This document shows, one piece after another, positions 3,796-11,847 of a stretch of DNA of 64,000 bases. The first letter of the stretch is position 1. Each line of letters starts with the position of its first letter. The stretch spans positions 291-64,290 of the forward strand of contig JAVCDK010000035.1 of NCBI GenBank assembly GCA_030765865.1, read 5' to 3'. Both the position numbers and the translations under genes were made by a program. The DNA comes from Candidatus Celaenobacter antarcticus (GTDB taxonomy: Bacteria; Cloacimonadota; Cloacimonadia; JGIOTU-2). Below the pieces are notes generated by a model that was given only the letters and a program-made list of their open reading frames with translations, was not told where the DNA came from and did not search any database.

Positions 3796-4407
3796 TTACT
3801 TTACTACCCAGCAACCTTCTACTACCAATTTTCTTTTTTCAAATATCTTTCCGTTAAACTTATCACCAGATTTAATAGGACCTACGCCTTTTGGAGTTCC
3901 AGTCATTATTAAATCACCGTCCTCAAATGAAGGAAAACCGGCAACTTCATTTAATATTTCGCCTGGCTTATTCAGCATCAAATCACAGCCACCCTTTTGT
4001 ACCAAACTGCTATTAATATAAAGCTCCATATTCAAATCACTAATATTCCCTCTGAAAGTGACGAACTCACTAAATACCGCAGACTTATCAAAAGATTTTG
4101 CTCGTTCCCATGGCAGCCCCTTTGATCTCAAATTAGATTGAACTTCTCTCTTTGTAAGGTCTAACCCAAATCCCACACCTTTTAATTTATCAGAACTTAT
4201 TAGAAAGGAAATTTCACCTTCATAATGAATAACATCATTTTTATTAGAATAAATATTTTTTGATATGGATGAATTTGGCTTAATAAATATTATCGGTTGT
4301 TTTGGTACTTCATTATGAAGCTCTTCAATATGATCTACATAGTTTCTACCTATGCATACGATCTTAGATGGGTAAATATCTTTGCCGTCAAACTTAATTG
4401 AGTTCAT
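3796..4407 (-). CDS. Fumarylacetoacetate hydrolase (FAH) family protein
   Basis: Typical FAH-family sequence (KIVCIGRNYVDHIEE, IFIKPNSS, GDLIMTGTPKGVGPIKSGD). The start is taken at Met16 (MNSIKF, ATG at 4407) rather than 4452. Host-like low GC. Confidence 0.8.
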   Translation of the reverse strand: MNSIKFDGKDIYPSKIVCIGRNYVDHIEELHNEVPKQPIIFIKPNSSISKNIYSNKNDVIHYEGEISFLISSDKLKGVGFGLDLTKREVQSNLRSKGLPWERAKSFDKSAVFSEFVTFRGNISDLNMELYINSSLVQKGGCDLMLNKPGEILNEVAGFPSFEDGDLIMTGTPKGVGPIKSGDKFNGKIFEKRKLVVEGCWVVK

Positions 4408-7218: not shown

Positions 7219-7425
7219 CTAACATACATTATACTGCTTAAAATTTCATATTCTGCGAGGTTAAGCAGAATATGAGATTCCTATTCAATAAGTAAAATTT
7301 ATTAAACTGTAATTTTCCTGTCTTTGAAATTAACAAATGTCATCTCCTTTGCTTAAATAGCAATTGTTGACAGAAATGTTAGCTCATATTTTTTGTCAAA
7401 TTATTATGAAACCTATCATACACAG
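7219..7425. repeat. Copy C of the nifS-selD upstream region, including the first ~11 nt of the CDS
   Basis: Contains the 32-nt box, an 8-bp hairpin ctgcttaa/ttaagcag, cctgtctttgaaat, and atagcaattgttgacagaaatgttagctcatattttttgtcaaattattatgaaacctat. It is nearly identical to 8174-8274. Confidence 0.8.
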
Positions 7426-7571
7426 TCCCAAATTTTTTTAGATTAATAGCACTTACAATTAAACTTAAAGAATATTATATATAATGGAAAAAAAATACAA
7501 TATTTTTCTTTTTAGATGTCAATTCTTAAATATGTAATATGACATTATTTATTATGTATAGTAATTTTTTC

Positions 7572-8036
7572 CTATCTATCAGATTGAATAAAAGTACCGA
7601 TTAAAGCACCAGTACTTCCAAAGATGAGTGGTCCCGCTAGAGAACCAATCAACAATTTAGTTTTAAGATCAAGGTGGAACTGGAACCCATTATCATCAGA
7701 ATCTTGAGGATCGACAAGTGCTAGTGTAACACCCAAAACTAATCCAATAACTACACCAACAAGTGCTCCTGTAAATGTGTTTCGTTTTTTGCCTTTCCAT
7801 AATTCAATTTTCTGAACATGTTGAACAGGAATAATAAATTTCTCTGAATGCATACTAATGAAGAGAGAATCAGATTGTATTTTATCAAATTTGCAATCAA
7901 TACGCTGAATGAAATATTCTGATGCGGTTAAACGAATACGATCATCCTGAGATAAACTGTCTAACTGTGCGAATAATATAGATTCTGTGAAAAGTAGAGA
8001 TACGAGAACGATGATTGTAATAGTTATTTTTTTCAT
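7572..8036 (-). CDS. Hypothetical secreted/membrane protein (154 aa) with a glycine-zipper-like segment
   Basis: N-terminal signal-like segment (ITITIIVLVSLLF) and a C-terminal Gly-rich hydrophobic stretch (GALVGVVIGLVLGVTLAL). Confidence 0.45.
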   Translation of the reverse strand: MKKITITIIVLVSLLFTESILFAQLDSLSQDDRIRLTASEYFIQRIDCKFDKIQSDSLFISMHSEKFIIPVQHVQKIELWKGKKRNTFTGALVGVVIGLVLGVTLALVDPQDSDDNGFQFHLDLKTKLLIGSLAGPLIFGSTGALIGTFIQSDR

Positions 8037-8074: not shown

Positions 8075-8263
8075 GATACATCATACTTCTTATAAAATCT
8101 TAGTCTGTTAAACTGTAATGTGAGGTAGTGTGAGGTCCCTGTCTAGTAAGTAAAATCAGTTAAACTGAAGTTTCCTGTCTTTGATATCTACATTTCTGAT
8201 CAATTTCTGTTATGAGATAGCAATATTGACAGAAATGTTAGCTCATAATTTTTGTCAATAATT
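8075..8263 (+). promoter_or_regulatory. Resident upstream region (copy D) of nifS-selD, shared with the divergent gene 7572..8036
   Basis: Homologous to copies C, B and A. Contains an internal ~52-bp duplication (gttaaactg..cctgtct occurs twice, at 8107-8144 and 8159-8180). Confidence 0.6.
8226..8258 (+). promoter_or_regulatory. Inverted repeat TTGACAGAAAT-N10-AATTTTTGTCAA, 5 nt upstream of the nifS-selD ATG (candidate operator or 5'-UTR hairpin)
   Basis: About 11-bp arms. Conserved in copy C (7367-7399) and copy B (5647-5679). A different hairpin occupies the equivalent place in copy A. Confidence 0.5.
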
Positions 8264-10462
8264 ATGAAACCTATATACCTCGACTATAATGCAACCACAC
8301 CTCTTGCGCCGGAAGTGGCAGACGCAATGAAGCCCTTCCTGGAAGAGTATTTCGGCAATCCTTCAAGTGCGCACTGGTATGGCGTGCAGACAAGAAAAGC
8401 AGTGGAAAAAGCACGCAGGCAGGTAGCAGAACTTATTAATGCAAACCCCGATGAGATCATTTTTACAAGCGGCGGCTCAGAATCCAATAACTTTGCAATA
8501 AAAGGCATTGCTTTTGCAAAGAGATCGCAGGGAAACCACATTATTACTTCATCTGTGGAACATCCTGCCGTTGTCGAAGTTTGCGAATACCTCAAGACAC
8601 AGGGATTTGAAATAACCTATCTTCCGGTTGATGAATATGGCATGGTCGATCCAGGTGATGTGGAAAAAGCGATCACTCCGCAGACAATACTTATCACAAT
8701 AATGCATGCAAATAATGAAGTTGGCACTATCCAGCCAATACGGGAAATTGCAGCAATTGCGCATAAGCATGATATCGTCATGCACACGGATGCTGCCCAA
8801 TCCACAGGGAAAATTCCTGCGCTGGTTGACGAATTGGGAGTTGACCTACTTTCTATTGCAGGGCATAAATTGTATGGACCGAAAGGGATCGGTGCGCTGT
8901 ATATTCGAAGAGGAGTGAAACTCCAAAAAATTATTCACGGCGCGGATCACGAGCAGAATTTACGAGCCGGTACGGAGAATATTCTTTGCGATGTCGGTCT
9001 GGGAAAAGCATGTGAAATTGCGGGTCAAAATTTGGAAAAAAATATGCAACACATGAAAGAAATGAGGGATCTGCTTCATAAGAAAATAGGGGACTCGGGA
9101 CTCGATTTCATATTGAACGGACATCCTGAAAAAAGGTTGCCGAACACACTCAGTCTTTCTTTCCGAAATGTGGAAGCGAATACAGTTCTTTCCGAACTTT
9201 CCGAAGTTGCAGCTTCAGCAGGTGCTGCCTGCCATTCCGATCAGATCGATGTATCGGCTGTACTGGAAGCAATGAATGTGCCTGTCGAATATGCAATGGG
9301 CACAATTCGGTTTTCTACTGGTAGGTTTACCACAAAGGATGATATAGAAAAAGCAGCGGATTATATCATAAAAGTTATCGGCAAATTCCAGGATAAAAAA
9401 GTAGAAGTATCTCATCAGAAAGATGCTGAGATCAAGCTCACACATTTTACTCACGGTATGGGGTGTGCCTGCAAGATAGAACTGGCATTACTAGAGGAGA
9501 TACTTAAAAAACTTCCCATACCTGACGATCCAAAAATTTTAGTAGGCACACAAACTGCTGACGATGCTGCCGTTTACCGGATCAATGATGAAACCGCATT
9601 GGTGGTTACTCTTGATTTTTTCACTCCAAATGCTGACGATCCTTATGAGTTCGGTGCAATCGCTGCTGCAAATGCATTAAGCGATGTTTACGCAATGGGT
9701 GCAACCCCTTTATTCGGACTGAACATTGTTGGATTTCCCTCAAATAGATTGCCTATGTCCGTGTTGGAAAAAATTCTGCAGGGAGCGCAGGATAAAGCTC
9801 AGGAAGCAGGCATTTTCGTGATCGGCGGACATACGATCGAGGATACAGAGCCCAAATATGGAATGGTAGTAGTCGGGCAAGTTCACCCGGAAAAGATCTG
9901 GAAGAATATCGGATTGCAAAAAGGAGATGTGCTTATCCTTACCAAACCGATCGGGACAGGCATTCTTTCAACTGCATTAAAAAGAGGTTTGCTCGACGAA
10001 ACGCAAAAAGATGTTTTGATTTCAACAATGACTAAATTGAATAAGAAAGCGGCAGAAATTCTACACAATTTCACAGTTCATGCCTGCACTGATGTGACGG
10101 GTTTCGGGCTTCTCGGGCATCTTATGGGAATGGTGCGGGGAAGCAAAGTAGCGGTTGAGATCATAGCTGACACTGTTCCCTTTATTGAAGGTGCTCTTGA
10201 ATTTGCAGCCGGGAATGTTATTCCTGGTGGAACACTCTCGAATATGAAGTATGTCGAAAATTTTGTTAAGTGGAGTTCGAGCATTTCACAGATCCAGAAA
10301 ATTATCCTGTGCGATGCTCAGACATCAGGAGGATTGCTGGTTTCAGTTCCGGAAGAAAGTGCACAAATTATTTTGAAGCAACTATATAAAGTCGGGATTC
10401 AAAAAGCAGAAATCATCGGAAAGATTATAAATAAAGATTCTCAGTTCATCAAAGTGACTTAA
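8264..10462 (+). CDS. selD: Fusion protein: NifS/IscS-like class V aminotransferase (cysteine desulfurase / selenocysteine lyase type) joined to selenophosphate synthetase SelD
   Basis: The N-terminal ~380 aa have MKPIYLDYNATTP, the PLP-Lys context SIAGHKLYGPKG and the active-site loop SAGAACHS. The C-terminal ~340 aa have HGMGCACKI (Cys-type SelD, TGC), DDAAVY and DFFTPNADDPYEFGAIAAANALSDVYAMG. ATG 8264 is preferred over TTG 8252. Confidence 0.85.
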   Translation: MKPIYLDYNATTPLAPEVADAMKPFLEEYFGNPSSAHWYGVQTRKAVEKARRQVAELINANPDEIIFTSGGSESNNFAIKGIAFAKRSQGNHIITSSVEHPAVVEVCEYLKTQGFEITYLPVDEYGMVDPGDVEKAITPQTILITIMHANNEVGTIQPIREIAAIAHKHDIVMHTDAAQSTGKIPALVDELGVDLLSIAGHKLYGPKGIGALYIRRGVKLQKIIHGADHEQNLRAGTENILCDVGLGKACEIAGQNLEKNMQHMKEMRDLLHKKIGDSGLDFILNGHPEKRLPNTLSLSFRNVEANTVLSELSEVAASAGAACHSDQIDVSAVLEAMNVPVEYAMGTIRFSTGRFTTKDDIEKAADYIIKVIGKFQDKKVEVSHQKDAEIKLTHFTHGMGCACKIELALLEEILKKLPIPDDPKILVGTQTADDAAVYRINDETALVVTLDFFTPNADDPYEFGAIAAANALSDVYAMGATPLFGLNIVGFPSNRLPMSVLEKILQGAQDKAQEAGIFVIGGHTIEDTEPKYGMVVVGQVHPEKIWKNIGLQKGDVLILTKPIGTGILSTALKRGLLDETQKDVLISTMTKLNKKAAEILHNFTVHACTDVTGFGLLGHLMGMVRGSKVAVEIIADTVPFIEGALEFAAGNVIPGGTLSNMKYVENFVKWSSSISQIQKIILCDAQTSGGLLVSVPEESAQIILKQLYKVGIQKAEIIGKIINKDSQFIKVT

Positions 10463-10752
10463 GCTGGATAAACTGAGCCAAAAATAATTCACCACAGAGA
10501 GCACCGAGAAAGAAAATAATATATTAAAATTTGGGATAATATTGAATGGTATAAATACTTATTAATAAAAGCTTCAAATAAAAAGATATTTTTCCCCATA
10601 AATGTTAAGAAATAAGAATAAATTCTCGTTCCCAAAACCCTCTTTGGGAGCGCAATATGAACTTATCCGCTTCCATGGACTTGGTAACGAGGAAAAAGCT
10701 TGCTTGACATACCATTTGTAAATCATATCCTATTTTATTATTCGGAGGTACA

Positions 10753-11790
10753 ATGAATAGTAAAAAATATATTACGAGAATTGTTGCATTAGCATTAATG
10801 CTCATAGCTCTTTCTACCATGTCACTTTCAGCAGAAATATTACTCTGGGATAATGACAATTATTCAACGATAAACGATCCCGAAGGCGCAGGATATGTCG
10901 GGTGTGAATACTCGCTTGAAAAAGCATTCAATAATATGAGTTTATCTTACACCACCTTAAGTTATCTGCCCACAAATCTGGACGATTATGACATGTTGTT
11001 CATTACACTCGGACACTGGTGCTTTGATTGAGGATCCACTCCTCCGGGCCAGGTTGGCTCAATCGAACAGCAGATGATTATCGATTTTATTACTGAAGGA
11101 AAATCAGTGTATATAGAAGGCACTGATGTTGCTTCGGGTTTGCAGGGAACGTCGCTTTTTTCCTACTTTGGAAATACTTTTAATGGCGAAGGTGACGATA
11201 TGAATGTACAAGATCTTGCCGGTGTACCGGGCACTTTTGCCGATCCTATTGTGGTTGATTATCAGTACTTTTCAGAATCTGATTACGGTGTGGATGAGCT
11301 TGGTGCAGCTTCTGCAGGAATATGTATTCAATCCCAGGATACAAAAGGTAGAGTTACTTATTGGGATGGTCCAGACGGTACATACAGAGCTATGATGAGT
11401 TCTATACTTTTTGGCTCTATAATCGATGGTTCTGGAATCAATAACAAAGCGTTTCTCCTGTCACGGTATTATTCATTCCTGAAAATCCTGCCTGTCAGTG
11501 TCGATCCACCAAATTCACCATCAAATGAAATCGTTCTGAAAAATTATCCTAATCCATTTTCAGCTTCTACTTTGATATCCTACTCAATCCCAACTTATCA
11601 CAATAATATCTCTCTTGAAATCTTTGATATCAAAGGAAGGAAAGTTAAGGAATTTTCCTCATTGCAACAGGATGGTACTATTATCTGGGATGGCTCTGAC
11701 CATTTCGGAAATAAAGTTTCTAATGGAATATATTTTTACAAATTCCAGGGAACGGATAGTGGCGTTCATAAAATGATATACATCAAGTAA
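10753..11790 (+). CDS. Secreted T9SS-tailed protein read through an in-frame TGA (11029-11031): candidate selenoprotein with a W-C-F-D-U motif; alternatively a pseudogene
   Basis: Track ORFs 10753..11031 and 11074..11790 are in the same frame, and the 42 nt between them contain no other stop. Features: strong SD (GGAGGT) before ATG 10753, a signal peptide, and the read ...FITLGHWCFD-TGA-GSTPPGQVGSIEQQMIIDF... The C-terminus has a Por-secretion-tail pattern (NYPNPFSASTLISY...GIYFYKF). Confidence 0.5.
11046..11060 (+). promoter_or_regulatory. SECIS-like hairpin GGGCC-AGGUU-GGCUC, starting 14 nt after the UGA
   Basis: 5-bp stem (one G-U pair) with a G/U-containing apical loop. The 42 nt after the TGA are 26/42 G+C in an AT-rich gene. 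Confidence 0.35.
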
Positions 11791-11813: not shown

Positions 11814-11847
11814 GCCCTCAATTTATTATTTTTGAGGGCTTTTTTTT
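11814..11847 (+). terminator. Rho-independent terminator
   Basis: gccctcaa-tttattattt-ttgagggc followed by an 8-T run, 24 nt after the stop at 11790. Confidence 0.75.

Follow-up and report, generated by a model that had tools for sequence, protein, structure and literature searches.

A candidate selenoprotein family with a predicted type IX secretion tail, encoded beside a NifS-SelD fusion gene in Candidatus Celaenobacter antarcticus

A review published in 2026 lists 119 families and subfamilies of prokaryotic selenoproteins; those known to act outside the cytoplasm include an FCYXU-type TonB-dependent receptor, BtuF, substrate-binding proteins and proteins resembling DsbA or DsbG (PMC13188914 Table 1). 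The bacterial selenocysteine insertion sequence (SECIS) is modelled in the same review as a hairpin with a 3-9 nucleotide (nt) loop on a 4-16 bp stem, with G in the first two loop positions, lying 16-37 nt from the UGA and having a minimum free energy of -7.5 kcal/mol or lower (PMC13188914 Fig. 2). Here we examined a candidate selenoprotein gene at positions 10753-11790 of a 64,000-nt stretch (hereafter the window) of contig JAVCDK010000035.1 from the Cloacimonadota bacterium Candidatus Celaenobacter antarcticus. Unless another locus is named, coordinates are those of the window, and the genes and elements described lie on its + strand. We put the probability that 10753-11790 is a genuine single gene with a selenocysteine (Sec)-encoding UGA at roughly 0.88.

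Two open reading frames (ORFs), 10753..11031 and 11074..11790, share a frame, and translation of 10753-11790 reveals TGA 11029-11031 as the sole stop between them; the 14 codons separating this TGA from the ATG at 11074 contain no stop. Read through, the locus is a single candidate gene (10753..11790) of 345 codons followed by a TAA stop, with Sec at codon 93 (11029..11031) and its C-x-x-U partner, Cys90, encoded by TGC at 11020..11022, within the motif LFITLGHWCFD-TGA-GSTPPGQVG. A Shine-Dalgarno-like GGAGGT can be read from the sequence 3 nt 5' of the ATG (10744..10749). The N-terminus, MNSKKYITRIVALALMLIALSTMSLSA (10753..10833), would be a Sec-type signal peptide cleaved after SLSA, having a basic n-region, a hydrophobic core and small residues at -3/-1; this call was made by eye from the translation, without a predictor, and equivalent N-termini were found in homologues. 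There follow a domain of ∼225 amino acids (aa) (residues 28-250; 10834..11502) and a type IX secretion system (T9SS) type A C-terminal sorting domain (residues 265-342; 11545..11778), which matches PF18962 (Por_Secre_tail) at 29.4 bits against a cut-off of 27 and TIGR04183 at 30.8 bits against a cut-off of 23. G+C accounts for 26 of the 42 nt 3' of the TGA, in a gene of 38% GC overall. The original prediction had described the same-frame pair with its open linker, the strong Shine-Dalgarno sequence, the signal peptide, the W-C-F-D-U-G context, the Por secretion tail and the G+C-rich stretch in an AT-rich gene, and all of these were borne out.

A word-indexed search of 5.8 billion proteins returned only 13 clusters, all annotated as a 238-240-aa C-terminal piece and assigned to Candidatus Cloacimonetes. 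In the DNA around these homologues an ORF of ∼90 aa ended exactly 42 nt 5' of the C-terminal ORF in every case, and read-through translation showed that its stop was always TGA, at the same codon. An exhaustive HMMER search using the exact window piece after the TGA as query gave 184 representative clusters at 50% identity. We classified 149 of the best 150 of these 184, leaving out the window's own cluster (P0004). Most of them (123/149) start no more than 30 residues after the site, none crossing it, and three begin further downstream. Six span the full length and have Cys at the aligned position, within the motif [WY]-C-x-x-C (P0014, P0021, P0022, P0091, P0122 and P0128), and one (P0019, discussed below) lists Trp there. 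The remaining 16 are distant full-length members with no Cys/Sec motif at all, and are therefore uninformative on this codon.

We also used pattern-based locus scans that are independent of the Sec/Cys state and thus provide an unbiased sample. Scanning one genome per GTDB species gave 20 loci and the JGI metagenomes gave 23, which after duplicate removal left 39 distinct sequences: 33 with TGA, six with TGC and none with TAA or TAG. Four more divergent members, fetched one by one, all have TGA, bringing the total to 37 Sec forms against six Cys forms among distinct DNA-verified sequences. The TGC codons occur in six Cloacimonadales species (loci L018, L024-L026, L030 and L031), while the 37 TGA sequences span at least four lineages, namely the Cloacimonadota, candidate division WOR-3, Stahlbacteria and a Bacteroidota-like metagenome-assembled genome (MAG). 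The site reads HWC[FLP][GAD]U in the Cloacimonadota, CYSU in a 'Bacteroidetes' MAG and an activated-sludge contig, and CLSU or CESU in other metagenomic members. In WOR-3, Stahlbacteria and their relatives the loop is one residue shorter and the Cys is vicinal to Sec, giving R-C-U-G-D. Vicinal C-U was noted in L021-L023, L027, L029, L042-L052, L054 and L055, with F-V-C-U-T-D in L054; it is reminiscent of the GCUG terminus of thioredoxin reductase and of the CU motifs found in selenoproteins that handle metals. Which residue homologues carry at the aligned position had been named as a check: among motif-bearing members it is always TGA or Cys (TGC), never TAA or TAG. A sense codon in the reads had likewise been named as a refutation; an assembly error is ruled out by two contigs from other samples, 99-100% identical to the window, which carry the same TGA independently (L033, and L034, the 296-kb contig Ga0307991_1000002 with 99% identity). 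To judge from these alignments, the alternation of TGA and TGC is a classical Sec/Cys pair, and the pattern of TGA conservation is far beyond chance.

One competing explanation is that the TGA is a true stop, the locus being either two genes, for a 92-aa secreted peptide and a 238-aa protein, or a nonsense pseudogene. Every public gene caller does split the locus there, an ATG is available to the second ORF in the window, and the C-terminal piece goes under the NCBI name 'T9SS type A sorting domain-containing protein'. We nevertheless regard this explanation as very improbable. In all 37 distinct sequences the stop falls at one and the same codon and is TGA, at a synonymous divergence that is near saturation outside the linker (dS about 1.7-1.9). 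Pairwise ratios of nonsynonymous to synonymous divergence (dN/dS) were 0.076 for residues 28-92, upstream of the TGA, and 0.094 for residues 108-250, downstream of it; the ratio was 0.16 in the C-terminal domain and relaxed to 0.63 in the signal peptide. Strong purifying selection on both halves at near-saturated dS is incompatible with a pseudogene. Conservation within the protein peaks in a block that spans the TGA, SYLP..L..Y..L.ITLGHWCF[DG]-U-G[ST]T[PS]PGQVG..EQQ, and the 14 'intergenic' codons are conserved as protein. The ATG of the second ORF is not: L010 has CAG at this position, where the gene caller took a later start, the ATG is also absent in other clades, and the predicted starts of the downstream piece vary among gene callers. 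The downstream ORF is therefore without a conserved initiation site. Furthermore, only the upstream part has a signal peptide, which a C-terminal T9SS domain requires, so that only the fused protein would make topological sense. Full-length homologues with Cys at the site also exist. The possibility, raised with the original prediction, that the downstream part is normally a separate gene is contradicted by the unconserved ATG, the conserved linker and the single, upstream signal peptide.

Reading of the UGA as a standard amino acid, either Trp or Gly under codes 4 and 25 or through near-cognate suppression, would also explain an open frame. In its favour, the public protein P0019 shows Trp at the site, and no tRNA-Sec was found in the window. 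The Trp was rejected on inspection of the DNA (L032 251-1285), which has TGA: the gene caller had translated it as Trp. Other genes on that contig show no code 4-like use of TGA, and such records could mislead tallies of Sec, Cys and other residues. In the window itself TGA is the stop of 13 of the 40 other long ORFs, each with further stops soon after, which argues that TGA is not generally a sense codon in the source organism. A scan of the 64-kb window for other same-frame ORF pairs split by TGA gave no further selenoprotein candidate. Since the sense-codon homologues carry Cys, the analogue of Sec, near a second Cys, since genes of the Sec pathway are adjacent in two phyla, and since the RNA is constrained exactly where a bacterial SECIS is expected, we consider a standard amino acid highly unlikely.

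The adjacent Sec-pathway gene in the window (8252..10462) was originally described as selD, ending 290 nt upstream. The distance to the ATG is exactly 290 nt, as stated, but the gene is not a plain selD: its 736-aa product joins a NifS-like cysteine desulfurase to a Cys-type SelD, on the evidence of Pfam matches to Aminotran_5 (1.3e-82), AIRS (1.9e-29) and AIRS_C (1.4e-22) and of TIGR00476 (selD) at 391.6 bits against a cut-off of 125. The SelD motif is GMGCACK, and the NifS/IscS-like part is possibly a selenocysteine lyase. NifS-SelD lies upstream of the homologue in L001-L004, L007 and L012-L015, and related Cloacimonadota contigs retain the fusion at 70-87% identity, with the gene order NifS-SelD, candidate selenoprotein gene, rimP-nusA-infB kept in the close clade. 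A second Cloacimonadota subclade (L014 and L015), whose homologues are ∼50% identical, also has NifS-SelD directly upstream. In the Bacteroidota-like MAG (L028) and in L053, a tRNA-Sec lies within about 60 nt 3' of the family gene (anticodon TCA according to ARAGORN; 60.1 bits to Rfam RF01852, whose threshold is 47 bits), and the downstream ORFs scanned in L028 encode SelA (PF03841, 1.8e-135) and then SelB (GTP_EFTU and Beta-barrel_SelB). L028 2915-8402 is thus a compact cluster of Sec machinery headed by the family gene, whose TGA is at 3956-3958 and whose product has an extra N-terminal domain of ∼250 aa. A distinct 'Cloacimonetes type' tRNA-Sec has been described in the Secmarker paper (PMC5330540). 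The proposed check for selA, selB and selC thus had a mixed outcome, with SelD adjacent and tRNA-Sec, SelA and SelB beside a family member in L028, but none of the three in the window. Sec decoding in the source lineage is well supported, and the presence of selA, selB and tRNA-Sec in this particular genome we infer from it. The Cys forms and the Sec forms of WOR-3 and Stahlbacteria are not next to sel genes.

We propose that UGA 11029-31 would be decoded by SelB and Sec-tRNA(Sec), recruited by a stem-loop within the coding region 14-29 nt downstream. The predicted hairpin GGGCC-AGGUU-GGCUC, starting 14 nt after the UGA, is indeed present at 11046-11060 and fits the published geometry. As a candidate SECIS (11046..11060) it is best written GGGCCA-GGU-UGGCUC, with a 6-bp stem and a 3-nt GGU loop 20 nt from the UGA, so that loop, stem and spacing fall within the rules for bacterial SECIS elements. 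A compliant hairpin as stable as this was found at only 1.2% of in-frame positions in 23 kb of window coding DNA. RNAalifold analysis of eight close sequences placed two small hairpins after the UGA. In the first, the pairs of GGGCCA-GGU-UGGCYC are kept through G-C/G-U exchanges, with one double change from G-C to U-A (L009) and one A.C break (L004). The second, GAGGA-UCCAC-UCCUC (11030..11044), overlaps the last two bases of the UGA; its 5 pairs are present in 8/8 sequences, with no double-sided changes. The UGAGGA of this hairpin, which is invariant in the close clade, is also Shine-Dalgarno-like.

Codon usage points to the same region. Among invariant residues with degenerate codons, a single codon was used across the eight sequences in 5/7 cases within codons 94-102 and in 12/116 elsewhere (Fisher p = 5e-4; Mann-Whitney p = 0.0014), and the two columns that vary within codons 94-102 are stem positions that change compatibly. 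The linker dS of 0.67 is about a third of the value elsewhere in the gene. In the WOR-3-type clade a different hairpin, UUGCUYC-GGC-GGAGCAA, lies 23 nt after the UGA; pairing reaches 91% over 13 sequences, compared with 25-59% when the partner strand is slid, and two of its pairs have changed on both sides.

Several observations weigh against Sec decoding at this UGA or against its hairpin being a SECIS. ARAGORN found no tRNA in the 64-kb window, which also contains no Rfam family and no selA, selB or tRNA-Sec. By itself the 11046-11060 hairpin has a folding energy of -6.5 kcal/mol, short of the published -7.5 limit (the value is -13.2 in a 57-nt context), and folding energies around the UGA were no better than those of shuffled sequences (z from -0.1 to -1.8), so that stability by itself gives no support for a SECIS. 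Among the Sec forms, the L020 locus lacks a compliant hairpin, and those of the L014/L015/L017 clade are only weak. At five of the six Cys-form loci (L024, L025, L026, L030 and L031) a hairpin stronger than that of the window is kept with the same spacing, and hence the hairpin does not separate Sec from Cys forms. Finally, the conserved PPGxVG peptide may be partly behind the hairpin. The hairpins of the Cys forms, CGGUGC-GGUCG-GCACCG or, in L030/L031, CAGUGC...GCACUG, lie 20 nt after the TGC; the two versions are related by a compensatory pair, in which one side changes Gly to Ser and the other is synonymous. They may be fossil SECIS elements left by Sec-to-Cys conversion, hairpins with another role, or a by-product of the PPGxVG peptide. 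Taken as a whole, the hairpin appears to be good supporting evidence, not proof, of a SECIS.

The ∼225-aa domain had no Pfam, NCBIfam or PDB relative by sequence. Pfam searches at permissive E-values with 28 family members gave no consistent match, and PDB profile searches with family alignments gave matches to the C-terminal sorting domain only. The fold assignment comes from an AlphaFold2 model of P0128, a Cys homologue, computed from an alignment of 34 sequences; its mean pLDDT is 83.9, with values above 90 for most of the domain. Foldseek comparison of this model with the PDB returned matches with probability 1.00 and E-values of 7e-8 to 2e-5, at TM-scores of only 0.36-0.46 and 10-16% identity, to the glutamine-amidotransferase domain of ADC synthase (8hx9), ThuA-like 4e5v, STM3548 (2gk3) and the middle domains of GH42/GH164-type glycosidases (PDB 6t5o being among the best matches). 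On the strength of the model, the domain is predicted to have a class I glutamine-amidotransferase-like (GATase1-like) alpha/beta fold of the flavodoxin-like kind seen in GATase1, ThuA and DJ-1. It counts against this assignment that it rests on P0128, which is about 25-30% identical to the window protein. The likeness of W-C-x-x-U to the WCGPC motif of thioredoxin, noted in the original prediction, holds at the level of sequence but does not extend to the fold. A thioredoxin fold was considered and rejected, as no Pfam or NCBIfam model of that family matches and the modelled domain is GATase1-like, with the motif in a loop ∼8 residues before the next helix; thioredoxin-fold oxidoreductases have their CxxC/CxxU at the N-terminus of helix 1.

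In the P0128 model the Cys-x-x-Cys is found in the loop that links strand 75-79 to helix 97-108. Only two columns are invariant in the 34-sequence alignment, the Glu of YIEG (window E122) and the Asp of VDEL (window D181), and the members without Cys/Sec keep both. The Glu stands at the end of the strand that follows the Cys/Sec loop, where it, and not Cys, is the invariant residue; from the model this strand end would be equivalent to the nucleophile elbow, and the Cys/Sec loop would lie next to a site formed by this Glu and the Asp, at the sheet's C-terminal edge. True amidotransferases have a catalytic Cys-His-Glu triad whose Cys occupies the elbow. By analogy, Cys90-x-x-Sec93 is expected in the loop after the third beta-strand, the usual place for active sites in alpha/beta folds. 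The Cys is invariant in all CxxU and CxxC members, and in the WOR-3/Stahlbacteria clade it directly precedes Sec (C-U). That CxxU, CU and CxxC are all tolerated argues for two-chalcogen chemistry with flexible spacing.

Cys90 and Sec93 would most likely form a selenenylsulfide/selenol-thiol redox couple or a ligand pair for soft metal(loid)s. We place redox chemistry, which we think has a slightly better than even chance of being the function, somewhat ahead of metal or selenium capture, and leave the remaining probability unassigned. According to the capture proposal, the protein is a real selenoprotein whose role is to take up selenium or soft metal(loid)s at the cell surface and feed NifS-SelD, rather than general thiol-disulfide redox chemistry. 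It draws on the NifS-SelD adjacency conserved in two Cloacimonadota subclades that are ∼50% identical, on the position of the family gene beside selC-selA-selB in a different phylum, on the tolerance of the site for CxxU, CU and CxxC spacing, and on the fact that catalogued vicinal C-U motifs occur largely in metal- or organometal-handling families (SaoL, HgcA and MbdU; PMC13188914 Table 1). Against it, sel genes do not adjoin the Cys forms or the Sec forms of WOR-3/Stahlbacteria, no transporter or selenium-binding partner is conserved nearby, and clustering with sel genes might instead stem from common regulation or from transfer together with the Sec machinery. We find this role doubtful. 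Its most elaborate form, a T9SS-sorted surface or extracellular selenoprotein family of FCB-group anaerobes, from the Cloacimonadota, WOR-3, Stahlbacteria and some Bacteroidota, that uses a GATase-like scaffold for selenium or soft-metal(loid) capture coupled to NifS-SelD or selC-selA-selB, is more doubtful still; if true, it would be the first selenoprotein implicated in cell-surface selenium acquisition. On a 3-Mb contig, L058, a DsbD-like gene (7295-7941; DsbD_TM and Thioredoxin_7) lies ∼2.3 kb 3' of a CxxU member. Its product could supply reducing equivalents to the exported Cys/Sec site, or the arrangement could be coincidence.

With regard to destination, the product would probably cross the inner membrane through the Sec translocon and then undergo T9SS sorting to the cell surface or the medium. 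From its domain matches, we consider it quite likely to be T9SS cargo. An extracytoplasmic selenoprotein as such is less unusual than had been supposed, since export is already known for several families in the catalogue (PMC13188914 Table 1); the T9SS tail is the new part. It is also conceivable, but in our judgement unlikely, that the selenoprotein is real and the C-terminal domain is instead an FlgD-like or structural beta-sandwich, the protein reaching the periplasm or outer membrane by another route. Here the PF18962 score exceeds its threshold only narrowly (29.4 vs 27), FlgD_ig and CHU_C fall narrowly short of theirs over the same stretch, the best PDB sequence matches are FlgD, and T9SS only 'may be present' in Cloacimonadota (PMC11285876). 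On the other hand TIGR04183 passes its cut-off, NCBI annotates homologues as T9SS type A sorting proteins, the PDB profile matches of the domain include the PorU C-terminal domain as well as FlgD Ig-like domains, and homologues across FCB-group lineages keep the same tail.

Elsewhere in the family, closer members are fused to Ig-like and NIDO modules, and distant Cys-less members to subtilisin S8 (P0124) or legumain-like C13 (P0090) peptidases, all of which are typical secreted or surface architectures. The peptidase fusions of distant homologues (P0090, P0124 and P0142) hint at a link between the domain and extracellular proteolysis. A separate group of ∼260-aa members (P0057, P0103, P0105, P0135, P0151, P0153 and P0159) has neither the Cys/Sec motif nor a T9SS tail. 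These proteins end in (S/T)-(W/L/F/I/V)-G-x-(I/V)-(K/R)-x-(L/C)-(F/Y/W)-(R/E), for example SWGDIKACYR or SLGYIKSLYR, which may be a different sorting signal. As for expression of the window gene, a promoter-like TTGACA-16-TATCCT at 10704-10731 lies 5' of it, and an intrinsic-terminator-like hairpin, GCCCTCA-(12 nt)-TGAGGGC followed by T8, can be read from the sequence at 11814..11847. With its 7-bp GC-rich stem and 12-nt loop, this hairpin was missed by a terminator scan limited to 8-nt loops. The two elements suggest that the gene at 10753-11790 can be transcribed alone.

Prokaryotic selenoproteins have been mined for two decades; this family is missing from the 2026 catalogue and from NCBIfam models. 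We found no family corresponding to the ∼225-aa domain among the 119 tabulated (PMC13188914 Table 1), and NCBIfam release 20 (June 2026) returned T9SS-tail matches only, for the read-through product and the Cys homologues alike. Full-text literature searches revealed nothing that links selenocysteine to T9SS cargo or describes the family. At least 124 clusters at 50% identity appear to be Sec forms, and the family stands in public databases only as truncated 'T9SS sorting domain' fragments. If the Sec reading is confirmed, the annotation of hundreds of genes would be corrected in Cloacimonadota, WOR-3 and related uncultured phyla, including abundant anaerobic-digester organisms. A GATase1-like scaffold with Sec outside the nucleophile elbow would join a mostly thioredoxin-like repertoire, and the protein would apparently be the first selenoprotein predicted to use T9SS. 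The natural CxxU, CU and CxxC variants would also allow study of the preference for Sec over Cys in an extracytoplasmic, anoxic setting, and because family genes recur beside selD or selC-selA-selB, a link to selenium handling can be tested.

Among described systems, the bacterial CxxU/UxxC redox selenoproteins GrdA, SelW-like, AhpD-like and DsbA-like (PMC13188914 Table 1) resemble the window gene in having a UGA followed by a stem-loop within the coding region, Sec-Cys pairing, Cys homologues and nearby Sec-pathway genes. The window protein differs from them in matching no such family by sequence, in its modelled GATase1-like fold and in its T9SS domain. The catalogue also includes a glutamine-amidotransferase-related selenoprotein, with which the window protein shares a class I glutamine-amidotransferase-type scaffold (PMC13188914 Table 1). 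The window protein gives no match to NF004836, the model for that selenoprotein's family, and unlike it is predicted to be exported. The motif of the catalogued protein is GxUxG, which presumably marks the catalytic nucleophile position, whereas the Sec of the window protein would lie in the loop after the preceding strand. The best structural matches to the modelled domain come from ThuA-like, STM3548-like and GH42-middle-domain proteins (4e5v, 2gk3, 6t5o and 8hx9), none of which has a CxxC/CxxU loop or a sequence-profile relationship that we could detect. With T9SS type A cargo (TIGR04183/PF18962) the window protein shares a signal peptide and an Ig-like sorting domain above thresholds; no Sec-containing cargo of this type turned up in the literature searches, and T9SS in the host phylum is itself inferred. 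The FCYXU-type TonB-dependent receptor of the 2026 catalogue likewise has C-x-x-U and a predicted outer-membrane or extracytoplasmic location, but is a beta-barrel, whereas the window domain is predicted to be soluble and GATase1-like, with no NCBIfam match. The recoding mechanism proposed for this locus is thus the standard one; the family is new and large, occurs mostly in uncultured anaerobes, and is unusual in its scaffold and predicted destination.

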